A stretch of 64,000 nucleotides of DNA from an uncultured Candidatus Saccharibacteria bacterium (GCA_964522195.1 CAZFSV010000003.1:29575-93574), one strand, 5' to 3'; numbered from the stretch's first letter, positions 8,987-63,287 are shown. Numbers and translations are program-made. The notes: generated by a model not told the origin, from the letters alone.

Positions 8987-9068
8987 GCCTGAGTGGCGGA
9001 ATTGGTATACGCGCACGACTTAAAATCGTGTCTCGCAAGGGATGTGGGTTCGACCCCCACCTCAGGCA
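8987..9068 (+). tRNA. tRNA-Leu (anticodon TAA)
   Basis: Acceptor GCCTGAG/CTCAGGC, anticodon loop CTTAAAA, long variable arm, T-loop TTCGACC. Confidence 0.85.
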
Positions 9069-9167
9069 CAAAATATTAAATATTTTTAGGTATGCGCCCA
9101 TAGCTGTTTTGGTAGGTCGTTAGATAAATAGTAAAATAAAAGTTTAATTTAAAAATAAATATAATAT

Positions 9168-9240
9168 GCGCCCATAGCTCAGCTGGTAGAGCAGATCCCT
9201 CTTAAGGATAAGGTCCAAGGTTCGATCCCTTGTGGGCGCA
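9168..9240 (+). tRNA. tRNA-Lys (anticodon CTT)
   Basis: Acceptor GCGCCCA/TGGGCGC, D-arm TAGCTCAGCTGGTAGAGC, anticodon loop CTCTTAA, T-arm CAAGGTTCGATCCCTTG. Confidence 0.8.
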
Positions 9241-9345
9241 CAAAGCATGTTATGCTTTGTGCGAATAGCAGGCACGATTGATGCCGAGACGGGGTAGCGA
9301 GATTTTTCAGCAGAAAAATACTTGTGACTACAAAGTAATTATATA
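9241..9345 (+). repeat. tRNA-adjacent mini-element, copy 1 (after tRNA-Lys)
   Basis: A hairpin overlaps the tRNA 3' end (cgcacaaagcat-gtt-atgctttgtgcg). It is followed by atagcaggca...gccgagacggggtagcgagatttttcagcagaaaaatacttgtgac, which is about 80% identical to 9556..9605. Confidence 0.4.
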
Positions 9346-9363
9346 TGTTAGTATATAAATTTT

Positions 9364-9445
9364 GGGTAAGTGGCGGAATTGGTATACGCGCTGGTCTTAG
9401 GAACCAGTGCCGCAAGGCTTGAGGGTTCGAGTCCCTCCTTACCCA
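9364..9445 (+). tRNA. tRNA-Leu (anticodon TAG)
   Basis: Acceptor GGGTAAG/CTTACCC, anticodon stem CTGGT/ACCAG with loop CTTAGGA, long variable arm. Confidence 0.85.
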
Positions 9446-9449
9446 CAAA

Positions 9450-9627
9450 AATTCACAAAAGACAGCTAAATGCTGTCTTTTGTGTTATTTTTTTGTGTGG
9501 TAAAGGAGAGGCGAGAAAGACGGAGGCGGTATACAAGAGGAGCACAGCGAGTGCTTGTGGCCGAGTCGGGGTCGCGAAAATTTTCTTTAGAAAATTATTT
9601 GTGACCGAGTCCCTCCTTACCCACAAA
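9450..9627 (+). repeat. tRNA-adjacent mini-element, copy 2, ending in a 22-nt exact direct repeat of the tRNA-Leu(TAG) 3' end
   Basis: cgagtccctccttacccacaaa occurs at 9428..9449 (inside the tRNA) and again at 9606..9627. The internal motif gccgagtcggggtcgcgaaaattttctttagaaaattatttgtgac is shared with copies 1 and 3. Terminator hairpins lie on both sides. Confidence 0.55.
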
Positions 9628-9669
9628 TTTTAAAAAACAGTGATTTTTATCACTGTTTTTTAAATAATG

Positions 9670-9741
9670 AGGCCTGGGGCGGAATCGAACCGCCGTGTGG
9701 AGATTTTGCAGATCTCTGCCTTACCACTTGGCGACCAGGCC
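9670..9741 (-). tRNA. tRNA-Cys (anticodon GCA)
   Basis: Reverse complement GGCCTGGTCGCCAAGTGGTAAGGCAGAGATCTGCAAAATCTCCACACGGCGGTTCGATTCCGCCCCAGGCCT. Confidence 0.8.
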
Positions 9742-16955: not shown

Positions 16956-16960
16956 AATTG

Positions 16961-33723: not shown

Positions 33724-33781
33724 AACAAAAAGACTTCGCAAGAAGTCTTTTTTCTTTTAAGATTTGTGCTAAAATAGATGT

Positions 33782-34402
33782 ATGAGTGAAGAGAATAATA
33801 AACAAAATCAAGAAGAAAATATACTTGCCCGAAATACTTCGCCTAGCGATACAGACGGGGAAGAAACAGAAGATGTTGTAGAATTTGAATATAATGAAGA
33901 CGGGGAAGAAGACTTAAAGAAAACCCTTAAAAAGCTTAGATTAGACTTAAAACAAGCGAAAAAAGAAAAAGAAGAGTATCTCATTGGTTGGCAAAAAGAG
34001 AGAGCGGATTTTGCAAATTACAAGAAACAAGAAGAAGATAGAAAAACCATGTTTTCCGAATCTATGCGCGAAAGAATTCTTTCTCGTTTTTTGACTGTAA
34101 TGGATAGTTTTAATATGGCTTTTGCGAATAAGGAGGCTTGGGAAAAAGTTGATTTGAATTGGAGAAAAGGAGTTGAATATATTCATTCTCAAATGAATAA
34201 TGTTTTTGAAGAATATGGAGTTTTGGAGATAGGTAAAATAGGTGAAGCTTTTGATCCAAACATTCACGAATCTTTGGAGATGGTTACCACAGATAAAAAA
34301 GAATTAAATCACACAATATCAGAGGTTATTCAAAAAGGTTACAAATTAAGTGATAGAGTATTAAGACCTGCAAGGGTGAATGTTTTTGAATTTAAGGAAT
34401 AA
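33782..34402 (+). CDS. grpE: nucleotide exchange factor GrpE
   Basis: Coiled-coil N-terminus followed by the ...RVLRPARV C-terminal domain. Confidence 0.75.
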   Translation: MSEENNKQNQEENILARNTSPSDTDGEETEDVVEFEYNEDGEEDLKKTLKKLRLDLKQAKKEKEEYLIGWQKERADFANYKKQEEDRKTMFSESMRERILSRFLTVMDSFNMAFANKEAWEKVDLNWRKGVEYIHSQMNNVFEEYGVLEIGKIGEAFDPNIHESLEMVTTDKKELNHTISEVIQKGYKLSDRVLRPARVNVFEFKE

Positions 34403-34420
34403 GACCTGATTAATAAAAAT

Positions 34421-35608
34421 ATGGAACACCAATCCGAAAATAAGGTTTGCCAGAATTGTAAAAATGATTTCACTATAGAGCCTGATGATTTTTCCTTCTA
34501 TGAAAAGATAAAGGTTCCACTACCTACTTTTTGTCCGGAGTGTAGAATGATACGAAGATTTAATTTTAGAAATGAAGGTATGTTATTTAGAAGGCTGGAT
34601 TCTTCTTCTGAGCAAGAAAGTTTTTCAGGTTATCCTCCAGAAGCAAAAATAATTACATACGAAAATAGTTATTGGTTTTCGGATAAATGGAATTCCGATA
34701 ATAATTTCTTAGATTATGATTGGAATGAAAATTTTTTTAATCAATTTAAAAAATTATTAGAAATTTCTCCAATACCTATAAAGAGTGTTTATAATTTAAT
34801 TAATTCTGATTATTGTAATGAGGCTAGTGAATTAAAAAATTGTTACCTTTGTTTTAATGTAGATTTTCTAGAAAATTCAGCATATGTCAGAAAAACCACA
34901 CACTCAAAAGATGTTTTTGATGTATATGAATGTGCTGAGTGTGAATTATCTTATAGTAGTGTAATTTTAGATAAATGTTACAACACTTTTTTTTCTTATA
35001 ATTGTAGCAACTCTTTCGATGTTTGGTTTTCTAAGAATTTAAAAAATTGTTCTAATTGTTTTGCTTGCGTAAACTTGATAGGCAAGTCTTATTGTATTTT
35101 TAATAAGCAATATTCTAAAAAAGAATATTTTAAGTATATTGAAAATTTAAATTTAAACTCTTATAAAAATTTTCAAAAGACATTCGAAGAAGCTAATATT
35201 TTTCATCTTAAGTTTCCAAATAAATATTTTAATGGGTATCGTAATTTGAATTCTTCAGGAGATAAAATTTATGATACAAAAAATGTAAAGTTTTCTTACT
35301 CTGTAAGAAATGGAGAAAATTTAAAATACTGTCAAGACATACAACCAAGCGCTGCAAATTCCTATGATTATACTATTTGGGGTCATGGTGAAAATATATA
35401 TGAATCCATAGTTTGCGGGCTTGGAGTTTTTAATTTAAAATTTTGTTTTAATTGTTGGGAAAATGCAAAAGACCTTGAATATTGTTCTTATTGTTTGAAT
35501 AGTTCTAATTGTTTTGGTTGTGTGGGTTTAAGAAATAAGCAATACTGTATTTTTAATAAACAGTATTCTAAAGAAAATGGTCGAAAAAATAAAAAAACAC
35601 ATGTATGA
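34421..35608 (+). pseudogene. Cys-rich multi-zinc-ribbon protein, N-terminal 395-aa piece of a gene split by a frameshift
   Basis: MEHQSENKVCQNCKNDFTIEPDDFSFYEKIKVPLPTFCPECR is paralogous to the N-terminus of 37860..39569. The frame breaks at the aaaaaataaaaaaa tract (~35585..35600). Confidence 0.5.
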
Positions 35609-36110
35609 TATGCCTTATTTAGATAAAAAAGGTAGATTGTATAAATATGGAGAATTCTTTCCTTTTGAAATATCTCCATTGTCTTATAATCAAAGTATGG
35701 TTCAAGATTATTTTCCTCTAGAAAAAGAAGAAATTTTATACAAGGGTTATCTTTATTCACCCATAAATAGAAAAGAATTTAAAATAACTAAAAAATGCAT
35801 AGATTTAGAAGATGATATTAGTTTAGTTGATGATTCTATTTTAAAAGAAGTTTTGGGTTGTAAAAATTGTAGTAAAGCTTTTAAGTTGATAGAAAAAGAA
35901 TTTTTGTTTTATAAAAGATTTAATTTACCAATTCCTAGAAATTGTAATTTTTGCAGAATAGAAAAATTAATTAAATCTGTAAATCCACCAAGATTTTATA
36001 ACCGTAAATGTATGAAAGAAGGATGCAATAATGAATTTGAGACTAGTTATTCTCCAGAGAGACCGGAAATAGTGTATTGTGAAAAATGTTATCAGAGTGA
36101 GGTGTATTAG
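35577..36110 (+). pseudogene. C-terminal 177-aa piece of the same split Cys-rich gene
   Basis: MVEKIKKHMYDMPYLDKKGRLYKYGEFFPFEIS aligns with ...EDMTNNPYIDSKGRIYKYGEFFPVEFS of the 569-aa paralog. 395+177 aa is about 569 aa. Confidence 0.5.
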
Positions 36111-36124
36111 TATATAATTAAAAC

Positions 36125-36721
36125 ATGATAGATCAAATTATTTTAAATGATAAAGTTAGAGATTTTGATGGAAGTATTTTGCCTTGTCTTATTAACTATG
36201 AAGAAAAAAGTGGAGGTTCTCATTATTCTGTAACCTTGGTTGCTAATCTTTTTAAGCAGGGTTTTAAAATATTATTTTTTACAGCTTATCCTATGGCAAA
36301 AGAAAATTTCATCGAACAAGTAGGTCTCAATGAAGATAAGATTGCCTTTGTTTTAAATCAACAAGATTTGTCAGCTAACTCAAATAAGCAATGCCTAATA
36401 TTAGAAAGTGGCAATCAGGAATTACTAGATTTTACTCTAAATAATTTGCCAGATATTAAAGAAAGAATAATCCTAATTAAAAATATTGAAAAATTTGAAG
36501 ATCAGATAATTTCTCAAGTTTTAGGTTTTGATAAAATAATTCTCTCTGGTCATTTAGATGAATGTAGTTTAAAAGAAAGTATAATTCAAAAAGAGTACAA
36601 AAATATAGTTTTGTTCAACAATCCAAAGATTAAATTGAGTGTTACAGCTCCAGATCTAGAAAAATATAATGCGTATTTTTGGACAAAAGAAGAAGAGGGA
36701 ATCACTAAAATAATAAAATAA
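36125..36721 (+). CDS. hypothetical protein
   Basis: A 198-aa ORF with no recognisable motif. Confidence 0.3.
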   Translation: MIDQIILNDKVRDFDGSILPCLINYEEKSGGSHYSVTLVANLFKQGFKILFFTAYPMAKENFIEQVGLNEDKIAFVLNQQDLSANSNKQCLILESGNQELLDFTLNNLPDIKERIILIKNIEKFEDQIISQVLGFDKIILSGHLDECSLKESIIQKEYKNIVLFNNPKIKLSVTAPDLEKYNAYFWTKEEEGITKIIK

Positions 36722-36737
36722 GTATAGTTGTCTACTA

Positions 36738-36765
36738 TTGACTTTTGGCTATATTGTGATATAAT
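36738..36765 (+). promoter_or_regulatory. near-consensus sigma-70 promoter (TTGACT-N16-TATAAT), duplicated at 55080..55107
   Basis: ttgacttttggctatattgtgatataat against ttgactttttgttatattatgatataat. Confidence 0.5.
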
Positions 36766-36812
36766 ACTCAGTGAATGAAGTAGTAGTTTGCTATTTCACA
36801 AAAAAATATAAA

Positions 36813-37067
36813 ATGGATAGATTTGGTAATTTTTTGGTTAATTTCTTTTTCGGTTCTTGGGAAAGAACCAGAGGTACATTAATTTTTGTTGGTATTATAG
36901 TATTAATTTTTTGGATACTAAATAACCAAGGAATTATCGTTAATTTTTTTAACGAAATTCTGGCATTTCTATACAATGTCCTCATGCCATTTGGTTTATG
37001 GGTGGCATTAATATATTTTGGATTTTCTTTAATCCTTAAATCTTTTAAAGGTGGAAAGAAAAAATAA
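36813..37067 (+). CDS. small membrane protein (paralog of 55130..55426; C-terminal ...LILKSF)
   Basis: ATG at 36813 (MDRFGNFLVNFFFG...) and two TM helices. The track's 36771 GTG start would lie inside the promoter. Confidence 0.35.
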   Translation: MDRFGNFLVNFFFGSWERTRGTLIFVGIIVLIFWILNNQGIIVNFFNEILAFLYNVLMPFGLWVALIYFGFSLILKSFKGGKKK

Positions 37068-37120
37068 AAAATATAAAAACAACTTTTATCTTATGAGAGA
37101 GTTGTTTTTTTTATTATAAA

Positions 37121-37813
37121 TTAGTTTATTGCTTTATAAGTAGCTACTATAGCCGCGGTCTCGGCCCTTAATGTATTTTCTCCTAATGATTCTATTTTGT
37201 AACCATTTTCGAGAGCTATGTGATTTTCTTTTTCAGTGAATCCTCCTTCAGGACCTACGAATATACTAATATTTTTTGAATTTGTATTCTTAGTATAATT
37301 TTTGTTTTTAGTAAAATCAAAAAATATCTTCTCTTCATTTTTCTTGCCGTCTTGTATTGCGTCAGTAAATTTTAAAGTAGGATATAGAGTAGGTAAAATA
37401 GTACGGCCGGATTGTTCACTCGCTTCACGGATGATTTTATTTAATCTCTCAACGTTGAGTCCAGTTTTAACTGTACGTTCGGTGATTATCGGTATGATTT
37501 CATTGACCCCGATTTCAACAACTTTCTGTATAGCTAATTCAAAATTTTCTTTTTTAAGAATTGCTAGGTATAGACTTACTTTTTTATATTTATTTTCCTT
37601 TCTTGTTTTTTCTACAATTTTAGTGGAGATATGAGTTTTTTTCATTTCTGTTATTTCTACTTTAGCTTCTGTACCTTTGCCGTCACAAAGTATCAGAAAG
37701 TCTCCGACGTCTAGCCTTAAAACACCCTTTATTTGCTTGATATTTTCAGGATTTGTGATTTCTGTATTTTCACCAGTTAAATCAAATTCCCCGATAAATC
37801 TATGTAGCTTCAT
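37121..37813 (-). CDS. rsmE: 16S rRNA (uracil1498-N3)-methyltransferase RsmE
   Basis: MKLHRF...PEGGFTEKE...LGENTLRAETAAI. Confidence 0.7.
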   Translation of the reverse strand: MKLHRFIGEFDLTGENTEITNPENIKQIKGVLRLDVGDFLILCDGKGTEAKVEITEMKKTHISTKIVEKTRKENKYKKVSLYLAILKKENFELAIQKVVEIGVNEIIPIITERTVKTGLNVERLNKIIREASEQSGRTILPTLYPTLKFTDAIQDGKKNEEKIFFDFTKNKNYTKNTNSKNISIFVGPEGGFTEKENHIALENGYKIESLGENTLRAETAAIVATYKAIN

Positions 37814-37859
37814 ATCTTTATATGATATACTTTAATTATTAAAATTCAAAATATATTAT

Positions 37860-39569
37860 ATGGAACACACACCCGAAACCAAGAATTGTCAGAATTGTAA
37901 AAATGATTTCACTGTAGAGAGTGAAGATTTTTCTTTTTACGAAAAGATGCAAGTCCCGGCACCAACTTGGTGTTCATTGTGTCGCTTTACAAGACGCATT
38001 GCATTTATTAATGCTTGGACTATGTATTTTAGAAAATGTGATCTCTGTGGAGAGAAAACAATGTCCATGTACCACCCTGATTCTAAATTAAAACTTTATT
38101 GTCAGCCTTGTTGGTGGAGTGACAAATGGGACGGGACTGAATACGCTATGGATTATGATCCTAGTCGTAATTTTTTGGAACAAGTTTTTGAATTAAAACA
38201 AAATACTCCTTTTTGTGCCCTAGAAACTACATATTTAAATTTAAAAAATTCTGAGTATACAAACGCTATATCATTTGCTAAAAATTGCTATTTAGTTTTC
38301 TGGGCGGATTATTGCGAGAATGTTTTTTATTCCTCTCTTTTAAACACGGTTAAAGATAGTTTAGATTTATTGAGAGTATTTAAATCTGAATTATCCTATG
38401 AGTCTGTTGGTGTTGGTAAATCTAGTAAAGTATTTTTTTCTGATACTTGTGATGATTGTGTTGACGTTTGGTTTTCTAGAAATTGTTATGGATGTATGAA
38501 TGTGGTTGGTTGTGTAAATCTAAGAGGCAAAAGTTATATGATTTTTAATCAACAATATTCTAAAGAAGAATATTTTGAAAAATTAAAAGAATTTAAGCTT
38601 GATACCAGAGAAGGAATTAAAAAGCTTTGGCAAGAATCACAAGACTTTTGGCAAAAGCATCCATATAGAGAATATACAGGCAACCCTCAGAACCTAAATG
38701 TATCTGGTGATTATATTTTTGAATCAAAAAATGCTAAAGATTGTTATATTTCTATGGGTGTTGAAGATTCTAAATATGTTCAATTTGCAACTGTACTAAA
38801 AACTACAAATTGTATGGATTACTCTGGTTGGGGCAATAATGCGTCCATGATGTATGAGTGTGCTTCTATGGGAGAAGATGTTTCAAATTCAAAGTTCTCT
38901 TTTTACAGTTTCCCTGATGTTCTAGGTTTAGAATATTCTATGCATTGTATTTCTGGGAAAAATAATTTTGGGTGTGTGAATTTAAAAAGAAAAAAATACG
39001 CTATTTTAAATAAAGAATATTCCAAAGAAGAATACGAGATTTTGCGGGCAAAAATTATTGAAGATATGACTAATAATCCTTATATAGATAGCAAAGGTAG
39101 AATTTATAAATATGGTGAATTTTTCCCTGTGGAATTTTCTTCTTTCCCGTATAATGATTCAAATGCATCTCGCTTTACTCCTAAAACCAAAGAAGAGGCT
39201 ATTTCTGAAGGGTATAATTGGATAGATAAACCGATAAATAATTATACAGTTACGATAAAGGGGCTTGATCTACCTCAGACTATAGAAGAAGTAGATGAAG
39301 AGATATTAAAAGAAGTGGTAGGGTGTACTAATTGTAATAACGGGTTTAGATTTACTGGAGGGGAGTTGAATTTATACAAAAAGTTGAATTTACCGTTGTC
39401 GGAGAATTGCCCTAAATGCAGAGAAGAGAGAAGATTTAATTCTATCAATAAACCGTATAGTTTTGAATCCAATTGTATGAAATGCAACAAAGAGATTACT
39501 ACTATGCATAATCCAAAAGACAATAAAATAATTTACTGTGTGTCCTGCTATCAGCAAGAGATATTATAA
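37860..39569 (+). CDS. Cys-rich multi-zinc-ribbon repeat protein (intact 569-aa paralog)
   Basis: CxxC pairs at both ends sit inside the conserved F.FYEK..VP.P..C..CR and L.LYKKLNLP....C..CR modules. Internal repeats have the form ...C..C.DVWFS.NC.GC.NVVGCVNLRGKSYMIFNQQYSKEEYF. Confidence 0.55.
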   Translation: MEHTPETKNCQNCKNDFTVESEDFSFYEKMQVPAPTWCSLCRFTRRIAFINAWTMYFRKCDLCGEKTMSMYHPDSKLKLYCQPCWWSDKWDGTEYAMDYDPSRNFLEQVFELKQNTPFCALETTYLNLKNSEYTNAISFAKNCYLVFWADYCENVFYSSLLNTVKDSLDLLRVFKSELSYESVGVGKSSKVFFSDTCDDCVDVWFSRNCYGCMNVVGCVNLRGKSYMIFNQQYSKEEYFEKLKEFKLDTREGIKKLWQESQDFWQKHPYREYTGNPQNLNVSGDYIFESKNAKDCYISMGVEDSKYVQFATVLKTTNCMDYSGWGNNASMMYECASMGEDVSNSKFSFYSFPDVLGLEYSMHCISGKNNFGCVNLKRKKYAILNKEYSKEEYEILRAKIIEDMTNNPYIDSKGRIYKYGEFFPVEFSSFPYNDSNASRFTPKTKEEAISEGYNWIDKPINNYTVTIKGLDLPQTIEEVDEEILKEVVGCTNCNNGFRFTGGELNLYKKLNLPLSENCPKCREERRFNSINKPYSFESNCMKCNKEITTMHNPKDNKIIYCVSCYQQEIL

Positions 39570-39592
39570 TTTTGTGCTAAAATATATAAATA

Positions 39593-41047
39593 ATGGCGAA
39601 ACCAAATCGAGTTCAAATAATTAAATACGGTCCACCACCACCAGAGCTTCCAGTTTATGGCAAGGTAAAACCTGAAGAGGTTTCTTTTATTGGGCGGACT
39701 AATTACGTCGCTTCTCTCGAAGAGAAGAAATTTATTTTCGGTTTCAAGAGAGTCGACCGTCGTCGTCACTTGTATATTATAGGTAAGTCTGGAGTAGGTA
39801 AGACTAAACTTCTCGAACTTTTCTTGCGCCAAGATATCACTTATGGTCACGGACTTTGTCTTATCGATCCTCATGGAGACGTGATAGATTCTATGCTCGA
39901 TTATATTCCAAAAGAACGTATTGAAGACGTTTGTATTATCGATCCGTCTGACGTGAATTTCCCAGCCTCTTTCAATCCTCTAGCGAACGTCGACCCTATG
40001 TTTAAATTTCAATTGACTCAAGGTTTGATTGAAGTTTTTCAAAAGCAATTCGGTGCTAACTGGACTCCTCGTCTCGAGCACGTTTTTCGTTTTACATGTC
40101 TGGCACTACTGGACTATCCGTATGCGACCATGCGCGGAATGATATCTATGCTTACTGATAGAAATTATCGTCAGAAAGTAGTGGAATATATTCAAGACGA
40201 TATGGTCAAAAGATTCTTCGCTATTGAATTCGCGGACTGGTCTGAGAAATTCGATACTGATGCTATTATCCCGCTCGTGAATAAACTCGGTCAATTCTTG
40301 TCTGACCCTTTGCTCCGCAATATCTTCGGTCAGAAAGAAAATAAAATAGATATTAGTACTTTGATGAATGAGCAGAAAATTATTTTGATAAATCTTTCTA
40401 AAGGTAAAATCGGTGAAGAGAATTCTTCTTTCTTTGGATCTATGTTTTTGACCAAGATTAAACAAGCTGGTATGGAACGCGCGCATATCTTAGAGAAAGA
40501 TCGTAAAGATTTTTATATTTATGTCGACGAGTTCCAAAACGTCGTGACTCAAACTTTCGAAAATATTCTATCGGAGGCTCGTAAATATGGATTGAACTTA
40601 ACCATGGCTCACCAATACGTCGGGCAGATTCAACCGAAAATCTATCAATCCATTCTCGGTAACGTTGGATCAATTATTTCTTTCCGTGTGGGAGGAGAAG
40701 ACGCGACTCGTTTGAAACCAGAATTCGACCCGCTTTTCGGAGTCAAAGATATGATCAACCTTGCTGTGGGAGAATTTTATATCAAGATGACTATCGACGG
40801 GGAGAGTTATGACCCTTTCTCAGCAGAGACTCTACGAGTATTACCTCCGACTCATACCTCCTACAGAGAAGAAATCATGGCAGCTTCACGTCGCAAATAT
40901 GCTATCTCAAAAGGTGACGCTCAGAGATTGATCCAAGAAGAGGAGTCTACTATAATTCGTAGTGCTGAAGAAAAAGCTGCGATAAAAGGTGCCGGCAGAA
41001 CAGAAGAAGGAGATAGAAAAGAAACGGAATCTGAACCTATGATATAA
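39593..41047 (+). CDS. TraD/VirD4 (type IV coupling protein)-like AAA ATPase, no TM segments
   Basis: Walker A IIGKSGVGKT, LCLIDPHGD...CIIDPSD..FNPL, Walker B IYVDEFQNV and LTMAHQ. Confidence 0.5.
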   Translation: MAKPNRVQIIKYGPPPPELPVYGKVKPEEVSFIGRTNYVASLEEKKFIFGFKRVDRRRHLYIIGKSGVGKTKLLELFLRQDITYGHGLCLIDPHGDVIDSMLDYIPKERIEDVCIIDPSDVNFPASFNPLANVDPMFKFQLTQGLIEVFQKQFGANWTPRLEHVFRFTCLALLDYPYATMRGMISMLTDRNYRQKVVEYIQDDMVKRFFAIEFADWSEKFDTDAIIPLVNKLGQFLSDPLLRNIFGQKENKIDISTLMNEQKIILINLSKGKIGEENSSFFGSMFLTKIKQAGMERAHILEKDRKDFYIYVDEFQNVVTQTFENILSEARKYGLNLTMAHQYVGQIQPKIYQSILGNVGSIISFRVGGEDATRLKPEFDPLFGVKDMINLAVGEFYIKMTIDGESYDPFSAETLRVLPPTHTSYREEIMAASRRKYAISKGDAQRLIQEEESTIIRSAEEKAAIKGAGRTEEGDRKETESEPMI

Positions 41048-41120
41048 AACATAGAACATATTTTTTGCGGTCGCAAAAAATATGTTGATTTTTGATTGGA
41101 GCTTTGGTAAAATATGGTTC

Positions 41121-41984
41121 ATGAGTAAAGATTACTATCAAACATTAGGAGTAAATAAAAATGCCTCAAAAGACGAAATCAAAAAGGCTTTTTATAAGTT
41201 GGCTCATAAATATCATCCTGACAAAAAAGAAGGAGATGAAAAGAAATTCAAAGAGGTAAATGAAGCTTATCAAACCCTTTCAGATGATCAAAAACGAGCT
41301 CAGTATGATCGTTTTGGCTCAAATTATCAAAATATGGGTGGATCAGGTTACGGACAACAAGGTGGCGGTTTTGGAGGTTTTGAAGGTTTCGATTTCTCTC
41401 AAGGGTTCGGTCAAAATGGCGGAATGGAATTTGACTTGAATGATATCTTTTCTGATTTCTTTGGTGGAGGTGGAGGTAGGGCTCAAGCTCGTCGTGGACG
41501 AGATTTACAAACTGAAATAAATATTACTTTCTCAGAAGCTATACTAGGAGTAAATAAAAAAATTAGTATTACAAAAAATAGTGAATGTGATGCTTGTAAC
41601 GGTAAAGGAGCTAAAAAGGGAACTAAGATGGAAACCTGTAAAACTTGCGCGGGAAAAGGTAAAATTCAAGAAATGAAAAGAACTATCTTTGGTAATATTG
41701 CAAATACTCGTATTTGTGATACTTGCCAAGGAGCAGGAGAGATACCAAAAGAGGTTTGTGATACTTGCCACGGCAAGGGAATTATTAAGAAGACAGAAGA
41801 AATAAATATACCTATTCCGCAAGGGGTCTTAAGTGGTCAGAATTTGCGTATGTCTGGAGCTGGAGAAGCTGTATTTAGAGGAACGAAAGGGGATTTATAT
41901 ATAAAAGTAAATATTAAAATACCTAGCAAAATATCATCCAAAGCTCGTGAACTATTAGAAAAACTAAAAGAAGAAGGAATATAG
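41121..41984 (+). CDS. dnaJ: chaperone DnaJ
   Basis: The J-domain [11 protein letters not shown]...HPDK, a G/F-rich region and a CxxCxGxG zinc finger ([32 protein letters not shown]). Confidence 0.85.
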
Positions 41985-47174: not shown

Positions 47175-47245
47175 GGGCGATTAGTTTAGTGGTAGAACAA
47201 CGGTCTCCAAAACCGTTGGCGGGAGTTCGATTCTCTCATCGCCCG
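47175..47245 (+). tRNA. tRNA-Trp (anticodon CCA)
   Basis: Acceptor GGGCGAT/ATCGCCC, anticodon stem ACGGT/ACCGT with loop CTCCAAA, T-arm GGGAGTTCGATTCTCTC. A terminator hairpin follows at 47252..47279. Confidence 0.8.
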
Positions 47246-62824: not shown

Positions 62825-63287
62825 ATTTAAAATAATTTTATCAGAAAAAGTCTTTTAAATCAAAGAGGCCCTGAACTTAAGTCCAGGGCCATTTTTATGT
62901 ATTTTACTTGTAAGTTCAGGCTTGGCCTGTTGCAAAAGTTAAAATACTTCTTTTTATTTAATTTGGGATGAGCAAATTATTTTTATAAAATTTTTTATAA
63001 AATTTCTCCTTTCAAAAATTAAGATTATTTTCATTAATAAACTTAAGCCATTTTTTAATTTATGAGAAATTTATTCTCCTTTTTTGGCTTGTAAATTAAG
63101 CTTTATCTTATTTTTTCCATTTAAAATGGTATAAAATAATAATATAAATAATAATCCACCTTCTCCCTGTAAAGAACTGTATATCTCTTATACTATAGCA
63201 TTTTTATAAAATAAAGTCAAGTGCTTAATTAAAATAAATAAATTCAATACAAAAAAGACTTAATTTAAATTAAGTCTTTTTTGTATG

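Follow-up and report, generated by a model that had tools for sequence, protein, structure and literature searches.

What a soluble relative of conjugative coupling ATPases, accompanied by large cysteine-rich (Cys-rich) proteins, might be doing among the genes of the Hsp70 chaperone system is the question raised by one locus (positions 34,421 to 41,047) in a 64,000-nucleotide (nt) stretch of DNA deposited as an uncultured Candidatus Saccharibacteria bacterium (GCA_964522195.1, CAZFSV010000003.1:29575-93574); this whole stretch is referred to as the window. An earlier note on this DNA had described two paralogous Cys-rich genes, one with a broken reading frame, and an ATPase gene (ATPase1 below) between grpE and dnaJ, and all of the corresponding open reading frames (ORFs) were present as claimed. 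Comparison with relatives shows that the window holds a reduced copy of a widely conserved module, which in other genomes includes dnaK and a second ATPase (ATPase2), and for which we tentatively propose a role in ATP-driven protein handling.

A neighbourhood survey anchored on ATPase1 covered 80 species-level Paceibacteria loci, 44 of which offered at least 8 kb of sequence upstream and at least 3 kb downstream (the well-flanked set). The ancestral gene order is grpE, dnaK, ATPase2, zero to six Cys-rich genes, rsmE on the opposite strand, ATPase1 and dnaJ. Within the well-flanked set, ATPase2 was found in 40 loci, dnaJ in 43, and one to six Cys-rich genes, counted within 10 kb of ATPase1, in 39; dnaJ directly followed ATPase1 in 78 of all 80 loci, and rsmE lay directly upstream of ATPase1 in 28 of them. 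All module genes save rsmE were on the same strand, with median gaps of 5 nt between ATPase2 and the next Cys-rich gene, 42 nt between Cys-rich gene and ATPase1 (many Cys-rich genes ended 20-160 nt upstream of it) and 39 nt between ATPase1 and dnaJ. The earlier note had also placed the module where dnaK usually sits; this part has to be given up, as the relatives hold dnaK too (35 of the 44 loci), upstream of the module, plus the second, paralogous ATPase.

Conserved linkage of the Cys-rich and ATPase genes, which had been proposed as a check, was borne out: the 39 loci with at least one Cys-rich gene nearby make up 89% of the set, whereas, if about three copies were placed at random on a contig of 813 kb, our own arithmetic gives fewer than 10% of genomes in which ATPase1 would have one within 10 kb. 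It is the family taken together, and not every single paralog, that shows this linkage, since orthologs of the intact window copy (type A) sit elsewhere in L003-L005, between a pseudouridine synthase gene and rplS and often beside a second paralog. At L006, where ATPase1 was 76% identical to that of the window, dnaJ was not adjacent, and three tandem Cys-rich paralogs were located 1.8 kb downstream of ATPase1. Expanded arrays were seen at L065 (about seven copies within 20 kb of ATPase1, some of them partial at the locus edge), L027 (five) and L023 (four).

The recurrent neighbours of ATPase1 were DnaK, DnaJ, RsmE, a PaaX-like regulator and the Cys-rich family, together with two more downstream genes encoding products of ~195 amino acids (aa; no Pfam match) and ~459 aa. 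No nuclease, helicase, recombinase or relaxase recurred among the 80 neighbourhoods in scans that left out the recurrent ~459-aa gene, nor was any integrase or transposase recurrent among them. When the VirB4-like and replication-relaxation proteins of plasmid relatives were used as tblastn queries, no VirB4 or relaxase was detected in the window or in ~85 loci. Judged from these comparisons, the module is shown to be chromosomal, conserved across Paceibacteria (candidate phyla radiation (CPR)/Patescibacteria) and of housekeeping grade. Many module-bearing genomes, L007, L011-L015 and L027 among others, carry the record title 'uncultured Candidatus Saccharibacteria', and that of one is 'Burkholderiales'; such labels are likely to reflect mislabelling or mis-binning, because gene content and closest relatives are those of Paceibacteria/Nomurabacteria.

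ATPase1 carried every coupling-protein signature that had been claimed for it, namely a Walker A motif (GKSGVGKT, aa 64-71), IDPHGD (aa 91-96), IIDPSD (aa 115-120), FNPL (aa 127-130), a Walker B motif (YVDEF, aa 310-314) and AHQ (aa 339-341). The absence of a membrane anchor likewise stood, no hydrophobic segment of transmembrane (TM)-like score being found: in ATPase1 and five ATPase2 sequences, every stretch of 19 residues stayed below 1.6 on the Kyte-Doolittle scale. Four Pfam profiles scored above their cut-offs: PF10412 TrwB_AAD_bind (30.1 bits; cut-off 20.5), PF02534 T4SS-DNA_transf (25.8; 20.1), PF12696 TraG-D_C (25.8; 22) and, marginally, PF01935 DUF87 (24.7; 23.2). NCBIfam returned TraD and NF045973 VirD4-like CD1115 (1.7e-12, aa 53-372), with a weak match to the DNA-translocating ATPase CedD, and PADLOC returned its mad8 (5e-13), HerA and DndH models. 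Searched by sequence against solved structures, ATPase1 had no match. An AlphaFold2 model was built from a shallow alignment and had a predicted local distance difference test score (pLDDT) of 59; Foldseek with this low-confidence model retrieved HerA, TrwB, Cagbeta and DotL at ~1e-6, the top entry being 4D2I (HerA) at 6.5e-7. In the same low-confidence model the two Walker motifs were separated by a helical block (aa 135-259), which falls within the PF10412 alignment. Because the model is poor, HerA and type IV coupling proteins (T4CPs) cannot be told apart by fold; ATPase1 probably falls in the HerA/T4CP branch.

Like the T4CPs (TrwB, VirD4, TraD, PcfC), ATPase1 possesses a P-loop domain with RHxxIxGxxGxGKT, DPHGD and AHQ, and Pfam scores above cut-off; the helical block between the Walker motifs of the low-confidence model (pLDDT 59) may correspond to the all-alpha domain that T4CPs have inserted there. 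Unlike them, it is without a TM anchor, has no VirB4, relaxase or other type IV secretion system (T4SS) gene nearby, and belongs to a fixed chromosomal pair of paralogs, more conserved than DnaK and flanked by dnaK, dnaJ and Cys-rich genes, of which ATPase2 has gained a zinc ribbon and a tethered terminal peptide. HerA translocases provided the best single Foldseek match, and DUF87 is just over its cut-off. In contrast to the HerA-NurA, HerA-Sir2 and HerA-DUF4297 systems, however, T4CP profiles outscore DUF87, the degree of conservation and the fixed position look like those of housekeeping genes and not of defence genes, and among the neighbours (the ~459-aa one left out) no nuclease, Sir2 or DUF4297 was recognised as a recurrent partner.

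Across the 80 species-level genomes, ATPase1 was 83-100% identical. In the same genome pairs the mean pairwise identity was 88.1% for ATPase1, 84.3% for DnaK and 76.0% for DnaJ, and ATPase1 identity lay above that of DnaK in 118 of 150 pairs; the ATPase1 of the window and that of L007 were 100% identical, with rsmE at 91%, DnaJ at 86% and arginase at 84%. The nearest relatives outside the CPR were plasmid-borne. One, on a Sulfitobacter plasmid, was a lone soluble protein of 395 aa (35% identity), while larger relatives (26-30% identity) from Embleya and from pBM69 of Bacillus methanolicus were located in monoderm conjugation clusters, which hold PrgI, a VirB4-like ATPase, a replication-relaxation protein and a cell-wall hydrolase. 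The module ATPases appear to descend from monoderm conjugative coupling proteins.

ATPase2, absent from the window, comprises 660-826 aa, and its ATPase domain is 43-45% identical to ATPase1 with intact Walker motifs. This domain is followed by a CxxC-x17-CxxC zinc ribbon (present in 54 of 55 sequences; PF23477, 47.6 bits), a hypervariable, low-complexity disordered tether and a near-invariant terminal peptide, EVPEDVLRKILE, which ended the ATPase2 of L007 (L007:2504-4858), L008 (L008:4692-7109) and 53 other loci. This layout, a tether with a conserved end peptide, is reminiscent of TraD and DotL, whose tails bind adaptors. The ribbon type of ATPase2 occurs twice in each Cys-rich protein.

The two Cys-rich copies of the window are designated A (intact) and B (frame-broken). 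With one A deleted, copy B encodes a 562-aa protein with 43% identity to copy A over its full length (blastp 2e-143), and end-to-end identity of this order places their paralogy far beyond chance. A terminal module, F.FYEK..VP.P..C..CR, was seen at both ends of both copies, in agreement with the earlier description of a repeated module with CxxC pairs at both termini. The same description had counted more than ten zinc-binding pairs, which was too many: copy A has exactly 10 CxxC pairs, eight of which make up four terminal zinc sites, and its interior cysteines form a ladder that is conserved in part. The putative zinc ligands are C10, C13, C38 and C41 at site 1, which is zf_Tbcl-like; C60, C63, C81 and C84 at site 2; C489, C492, C517 and C520 at site 3; and C539, C542, C560 and C563 at site 4. 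Sites 2 and 4 (aa 60-84 and 539-563) share the CxxC-x17-CxxC spacing. All cysteines of the four sites were invariant among 40 copy A orthologs. In 117 full-length paralogs from 62 loci, site 1 was conserved at 99-100% and the cysteines of the C-terminal pair (sites 3 and 4) at 90-100%, and site 2 was complete in 55; as it is complete in only 55 of the 117, its absence from copy B is a trait of the subfamily and not decay.

Between the two ribbon pairs, the putative central solenoid of copy A is formed of two halves, each of which closes with GCVNL..K.Y.I.N..YSKEEY and then a helix. The best fold match of this narrow Cys-ladder solenoid was the beetle antifreeze protein of Tenebrio molitor (1EZG), and its near kin in fold are the narrow beta-solenoids, among them 1EZG, CsgA (8C50) and ice-binding proteins. 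The family consensus has a run C209-x2-C212-x2-C215-x2-C218 inside the solenoid repeat, C215 being a valine in copy A. A left-handed beta-helix of the hexapeptide type, as in acyltransferases and gamma-carbonic anhydrases, was considered and rejected, with no Hexapep match in Pfam and a strand spacing of 12, not 18; Foldseek gave no match at E <= 0.001, and TM-scores were ~0.1. The architecture of the family is a treble-clef ribbon plus a CxxC-x17-CxxC ribbon, a Cys-ladder beta-solenoid, and the same ribbon pair again.

No described family accounts for the Cys-rich protein, which the earlier note had not recognised either: searches of Pfam, NCBIfam, PADLOC and the PDB (by sequence and by profile) produced only sub-threshold ribbon matches and LIM-like noise, the Pfam and NCBIfam ones being treble-clef matches to the C-terminus of copy A (zf_Tbcl_2, PF23477, 25.2 bits, cut-off 27; TIGR04272, 23.9 bits, cut-off 36). 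Many homologs, and ATPase2, exceed the curated zf_Tbcl_2 cut-off. A radical-SAM or ferredoxin-like identity, which according to the earlier note would have overturned its description, was not borne out, neither Pfam nor NCBIfam giving such a match at E <= 0.1. Word-sharing homologs with a length of 560-600 aa and an identity of 56-78% numbered more than 5,100, and an exhaustive search returned 3,521 clusters at 50% identity, 1,243 of them with E <= 1e-30; all named homologs are from Paceibacterota, Nomurabacteria or Patescibacteria. Conservation within the type-A subfamily (56-78%) is at the level of ribosomal protein S9 and DnaJ. No TM or signal-like segment was found in the family, and no relatives were found on plasmids or phages.

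Small Methanosarcina mazei proteins with the CxxC-x17-CxxC spacing (A00184, A01980) bind zinc, as determined by inductively coupled plasma mass spectrometry (PMC12704099). Like the small zinc proteins of TIGR04272/PF23477, the Cys-rich family has the exact C-x2-C-x17-C-x2-C spacing and weak profile matches; those proteins, however, are free-standing and of ~40-60 aa, whereas copy A combines the ribbon with three others in 569 aa, and the ribbon also occurs in fusion with an ATPase. Just before the third ribbon of copy A lies an acidic amphipathic stretch, EVDEEILKEVVG (39288-39323 in the window), which resembles the ATPase2 terminal peptide EVPEDVLRKILE; the two may represent a shared docking motif, which we offer as a lead.

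How the window came to differ from this pattern is indicated by its closest relatives, which retain the complete set. The order is grpE, PaaX-like gene (-), dnaK, ATPase2, Cys-rich gene, rsmE(-), ATPase1 and dnaJ (374 aa) in L008; dnaK, ATPase2, rsmE(-), Cys-rich gene, ATPase1 (99% identical) and dnaJ (368 aa) in L087; and dnaK, ATPase2, orf199, rsmE(-), Cys-rich gene and ATPase1 in L088. In the window, copy B directly follows grpE, as in L011, and homology to L088 restarts at 36114, which corresponds to the final 4 nt of ATPase2; because homology resumes only at the end of ATPase2, the window locus is without both dnaK and ATPase2. The statement that no dnaK lies in the window was upheld, a tblastn search of all 64 kb with E. 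coli DnaK being empty. Among the closest ATPase2 homologs in a database of 5.8 billion proteins, none of the four with a checked origin came from the samples of this organism. This suggests that the loss of dnaK and ATPase2, established at the locus, is a true loss from this genome. As read from these alignments, the window is a derived, reduced copy of the module, and the module is not a replacement for dnaK. The locus of L040 consists only of grpE, rsmE(-), ATPase1 and dnaJ. In the sub-lineage of the window, dnaK is missing from the locus or split in several genomes; at L011:4736-6768 it is divided into ORFs of 317 and 331 aa, through either a pseudogene or an assembly error.

The dnaJ of the window has also been shortened. 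Alignment with L008 and L087 revealed a clean in-frame loss of ~82 aa that corresponds exactly to C-terminal domain II, with the deletion junction between the repeated motifs GDLYIKV and GDILIQL-NIK, and matches to Pfam DnaJ and DnaJ_CXXCXGXG and partial matches to DnaJ_C were obtained. The L007 gene (L007:10714-11613) has the exact same in-frame gap; in L009, L011 and L040 dnaJ is also short (285 aa, judged by length only), and in most other relatives it encodes 360-374 aa. The Cys-rich genes have been mobile within the locus as well. The gene between rsmE and ATPase1 in L087 (4811-6514) and L088 (5640-7349) is 52% identical to copy A, while ATPase1 is 99-100% and rsmE 72-88% identical in the same comparison, and a 78% ortholog of copy A lies on the other side of ATPase1 in L011. 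That Cys-rich identity is 52% against 99-100% for ATPase1 at the same position indicates that paralogs have been swapped or replaced within the locus.

The interval from grpE to dnaJ was identical base for base across 33782-41984 in Logan assemblies of SRR13355621 and SRR13355622, two independently assembled runs (L001, L002), so the broken copy B is present in identical form in three assemblies from two read sets. Of the three explanations put forward earlier for the break (pseudogene, sequencing slip or phase variation), a one-off assembly slip is ruled out by the occurrence of the same break in both of these assemblies. The 395/177-aa split was as described, but its position was not: instead of lying inside a poly-A tract at ~35585..35600, the break is placed by homology at 35575-35586, 5' of the A6 and A7 runs, with aa 1-390 of copy A aligning up to 35575 and aa 398-568 from 35586. 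The break coincides with a short run, A4, on the 5' margin of the A-rich stretch GAAAATGGTCGAAAAAATAAAAAAACA; taking out 1 nt or adding 2 nt restores the frame. The second ORF has an ATG start exactly at the break. At 26% GC, shuffled sequence gave a maximum of 106 open codons, against 395 and 177 in the two halves, both still open, and copy B retains all 12 ligand cysteines of sites 1, 3 and 4; for these reasons the lesion is either young or the gene still works, for example as two polypeptides. Our best reading is that copy B is a young pseudogene or a gene split in two.

We consider it quite improbable that the break arose as an artefact of sequencing or marks a site of phase variation or programmed frameshifting. 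The break does abut A-rich runs (A4, A6, A7), and the open halves and intact ligand cysteines would fit such a site. However, the sequence is the same in all three assemblies, and the break itself maps to the short A4 run; the required shift, read from the sequence, is +1/-2 and not of the usual -1 heptamer type; and split family members, such as that of L026 (114 + 478 aa), break at different positions. The short A4 run and the differing positions leave phase variation unsupported, and a programmed frameshift or conserved recoding is ruled out because the site differs between split members. At L004:9670-10213, rplS appears as two overlapping 92-aa ORFs in the ENA assembly, probably through a frameshift error, a reminder that some split genes in such metagenome-assembled genomes are artefacts.

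Sequence elements upstream of the genes were also compared. The extended -10-like 12-mer TTGTGCTAAAAT has just two exact copies in the 64-kb window, those upstream of grpE and ATPase1. In relatives, the core TGNTAWAAT was found upstream of ATPase1 in 35 of 81 cases (43%), of ATPase2 in 38%, of grpE in 8 of 17 (47%) and of dnaJ in 29%, but upstream of only 5 of 117 Cys-rich genes (4%) and of no dnaK, rsmE or rpsI. From this distribution we argue that the ATPases and co-chaperones have separate strong promoters and that the Cys-rich genes are mostly read through; the pattern neither proves nor excludes co-regulation. The 12-mer as the mark of a specific regulon is weakly supported, and it looks like a generic strong extended -10 element. 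The genes of the region are without Shine-Dalgarno sequences, and this, together with the 7-10 nt between TTGTGCTAAAAT and the start codons, suggests very short leaders. The heat-shock operator CIRCE (controlling inverted repeat of chaperone expression) was looked for and was absent. L008 (1927-2547, -) and 33 other loci, but not the window, have a gene for a PaaX-like winged-helix regulator (PaaX_M, 1.4e-21) on the opposite strand, with grpE and dnaK on either side; with CIRCE missing, this protein could regulate the chaperone genes locally. The spacer between ATPase1 and dnaJ is filled by a perfect 14-bp inverted repeat. Perfect inverted repeats of at least 8 bp were found in this spacer in 5 of 78 other loci and none resembles that of the window, so that a conserved operator is ruled out and the repeat is specific to this genome.

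Features of the locus, with positions counted from the first letter of the window
Feature	Position	Strand	Remarks
Terminator-like hairpin	33727-33752		Between rpsI and grpE
Extended -10-like 12-mer TTGTGCTAAAAT	33764..33775	+	7 nt upstream of grpE start codon
grpE (206 aa)	33782..34402	+	Left border of locus; Pfam GrpE 2.2e-37
Cys-rich paralog B, N-terminal ORF (395 aa)	34421..35608	+	Putative zinc site 1 and beta-solenoid core; without zinc site 2
Frame break in paralog B	35575..35586	+	Located by tblastn with copy A
Cys-rich paralog B, C-terminal ORF (177 aa)	35577..36110	+	Conserved PY.D..GR.Y.YGEFFP segment and zinc sites 3 and 4 (putative)
orf198, hypothetical	36125..36721	+	87% identity to L088:4118-4717 (orf199)
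orf98, small predicted membrane protein	36771..37067	+	Hydrophobic segments aa 32-60 and 62-92
rsmE (16S rRNA U1498 methyltransferase)	37121..37813	-	Pfam Methyltrans_RNA 8e-42
Cys-rich paralog A (569 aa, 29 Cys)	37860..39569	+	Intact; four putative zinc sites
N-terminal zinc-ribbon pair of paralog A (putative)	37887..38111	+	Sites 1 and 2
Putative central beta-solenoid of paralog A	38370..39005	+	aa ~171-382; 12-residue strand spacing, Cys ladder
C-terminal zinc-ribbon pair of paralog A (putative)	39324..39548	+	Sites 3 and 4
Second exact TTGTGCTAAAAT	39572..39583	+	10 nt upstream of ATPase1 start codon
ATPase1 (484 aa), soluble T4CP/HerA-clade P-loop ATPase	39593..41047	+	Walker A 39782-39805; Walker B 40520-40534
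Perfect 14-bp inverted repeat AACATATTTTTTGC-GGTC-GCAAAAAATATGTT	41055..41086		Fills ATPase1-dnaJ spacer; terminator-like (both strands) or attenuator-like
dnaJ, short form	41121..41984 (first ATG 41082)	+	287 aa from conserved MSKDYY, 300 aa from first ATG; right border

Two further ORFs lie between copy B and rsmE. The product of orf198 had no match in Pfam, NCBIfam or PADLOC and no homologs in the other 80 loci apart from L088, where the homolog sits directly 3' of ATPase2; its conservation in this close relative argues that orf198 is a real gene, and by its distribution it is a lineage-restricted extra gene of the module. Its origin as a remnant of ATPase2 or DnaK was considered and ruled out by the lack of similarity and by the full-length 87% homolog. 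For orf98 no relatives were found among the 80 loci, making it unique to this genome. The window has a GC content of ~29%, and a ribosomal-protein/rpoA block, with rpsI as its last gene, precedes the grpE locus. Elsewhere in the window were a cluster of four tRNA genes at 8987-9741 (Leu-TAA, Lys-CTT and Leu-TAG on the + strand, Cys-GCA on the - strand) and tRNA genes for Tyr (at 16960), Trp (at 47175) and Leu-CAA (at 63287).

A literature search yielded no description of the module, of the Cys-rich family and its architecture, of ATPase1 and ATPase2 as an extremely conserved pair at a fixed place between dnaK and dnaJ, or of the ATPase2 tail peptide; each domain type, and the orphan status of patescibacterial T4CP homologs, is already known. 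In 2,918 patescibacterial genomes, 5,713 VirD4-type genes have been counted, only 148 of them near virB4, and the same 2025 survey, in which dnaK and dnaJ are unmentioned, held that exaptation of the orphan VirD4-like genes "cannot be ruled out" (PMC12102498). About two VirD4-type genes per genome matches the pair of ATPase1 and ATPase2.

We favour, as a tentative explanation that falls somewhat short of an even chance, an exapted ATP-driven motor that works with Cys-rich adaptors or clients in protein handling linked to Hsp70. Between dnaK and dnaJ, two paralogous soluble ATPases, probably of the ring type, bracket a variable array of 0-6 Cys-rich genes, whose ~570-aa products are predicted to be cytoplasmic; the ATPases would have been exapted from conjugation to a housekeeping role and would act as ATP-driven hexameric motors. 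The Cys-rich proteins would serve them as dedicated adaptors or clients, which they would recognise by the type of ribbon that ATPase2 also has and by the similar acidic helix. Rather than conjugative DNA transfer, the role would be to handle proteins together with the Hsp70 system, by unfolding them, handing them over or assembling them. In favour of this explanation are the near-universal dnaJ/dnaK context, the ribbon and peptide modules that the proteins share, and Ruc as a precedent; exaptation is suggested because there is no TM segment, no VirB4 or relaxase nearby, and only 148 of 5,713 T4CP homologs lie near virB4 (PMC12102498). In M. tuberculosis the chaperone Ruc, which has a zinc ribbon, passes its clients on to DnaKJE (PMC7448276). 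As in Ruc and Hsp33, four-cysteine zinc sites occur here in a protein tied genomically or functionally to DnaK, DnaJ and GrpE; no sequence similarity was detected, however, and Ruc is small, with one ribbon and a disordered tail.

Several observations weigh against this explanation. The link to Hsp70 consists of gene order alone, and the ATPase-Cys cluster of L006 lies away from dnaJ, while type-A orthologs occupy an unrelated locus in several genomes. Co-transcription is not established, as ATPase1, ATPase2, grpE and dnaJ often have a promoter-like element of their own, and the ATPase1 model is of low confidence (pLDDT 59). An obligate partnership of all four components is made questionable by the retention of ATPase1 and Cys-rich genes in the window when dnaK and ATPase2 have gone from the locus, unless these are encoded elsewhere. 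Moreover, most characterised members of the HerA/FtsK/T4CP group move DNA, and zinc ribbons commonly bind nucleic acids.

The last two points lead to the main rival, itself doubtful, in which the ATPases are DNA or RNA translocases for uptake, segregation or repair, the Cys-rich proteins are adaptors that bind nucleic acids, and the place of the module between dnaK and dnaJ is a relic of history. The host bacteria are described as naturally competent and reduced. Such a motor would account for the closest solved folds, the DNA translocases HerA, TrwB, Cagbeta and DotL (from the low-confidence model), for the Pfam label of the matched ATPase1 region ('coupling protein DNA-binding domain'), for the weak match to DNA-translocating CedD, for zinc ribbons, which often bind nucleic acids, and for ATPase-Cys linkage without dnaJ at L006; yet no nuclease, helicase, recombinase or relaxase recurs in the 80 neighbourhoods (the ~459-aa neighbour left out), up to six or seven ribbon-protein paralogs per locus would be unusual for a DNA-processing factor, and adjacency to dnaJ in 78 of 80 loci is hard to dismiss. 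The same T4CP ancestry could mean that the ATPases are coupling proteins still, the Cys-rich proteins being effector or surface substrates of a T4SS-like machine encoded elsewhere and kept competent for export by DnaK and DnaJ. We regard this as improbable: the ATPases are without a membrane anchor and not near virB4, and in Ca. S. epibionticum the t4cp homolog is reported to be non-essential, whereas T4SS genes were essential (PMC12102498). The multi-paralog arrays with paralogs swapped between close genomes, and a Cys-ladder solenoid resembling secreted disulfide-rich beta-helices (1EZG), would suit substrates, as would the lack of signal peptide or TM segment, and the tethered ATPase2 peptide is analogous to the adaptor-binding tails of TraD and DotL; but paralog subfamilies conserved at the level of S9 and DnaJ (type A 56-78%) are unlike the products of diversifying selection, and zinc ribbons with four cysteines are typically features of proteins in the cytoplasm.

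The ATPases and Cys-rich proteins might instead have independent functions, the latter as redox-switched zinc holdases of the Ruc/Hsp33 type or as metal buffers, with frozen synteny holding unrelated ATPases beside them. Ruc again supplies a precedent, as a zinc-ribbon chaperone feeding DnaKJE (PMC7448276), and the type-A orthologs away from the ATPases in L003-L005, the 5 of 44 loci with ATPases but no Cys-rich gene nearby and the ATPases' own promoter-like elements would all follow. Independence is hardly probable, however, given that ATPase2 bears the Cys-rich ribbon type and is typically 5 nt from the next Cys-rich gene, that the linkage survives in L006 despite the lost dnaJ context, and that Cys-rich genes lie within 10 kb of ATPase1 in 89% of loci against fewer than 10% expected at random. 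Finally, the PADLOC matches to mad8 (5e-13), HerA and DndH and the varying copy number of partner genes would be in keeping with a mobile element or an anti-phage defence island, built on a HerA- or DndH-like ATPase with variable partners; this is very improbable in view of an ATPase1 more conserved than DnaK and chromosomally fixed in 78 of 80 species, of Cys-rich proteins without PADLOC, plasmid or phage relatives, and of the absence of recurrent integrases or transposases.

CPR/Patescibacteria make up a large share of bacterial diversity, and much of their conserved gene content is without known function. The present analysis gives the orphan patescibacterial VirD4-like genes a concrete setting in Paceibacteria, as a fixed pair between dnaK and dnaJ that brackets Cys-rich arrays, and makes the role of orphan coupling ATPases testable through candidate partners (Cys-rich proteins, DnaJ, DnaK), a candidate docking peptide (EVPEDVLRKILE) and a shared ribbon. 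The window itself amounts to a natural reduction experiment, in which ATPase1 and Cys-rich genes persist with neither dnaK nor ATPase2 at the locus. A broader proposal, that a ring ATPase pair, expandable adaptors and DnaK/DnaJ form an unrecognised housekeeping machine of Paceibacteria, perhaps of the wider CPR, that remodels, unfolds or delivers proteins, is unlikely as it stands. Were it true, the module would represent a new class of Hsp70-linked, ATP-driven protein-handling system, possibly one that replaces machinery that reduced genomes lack.

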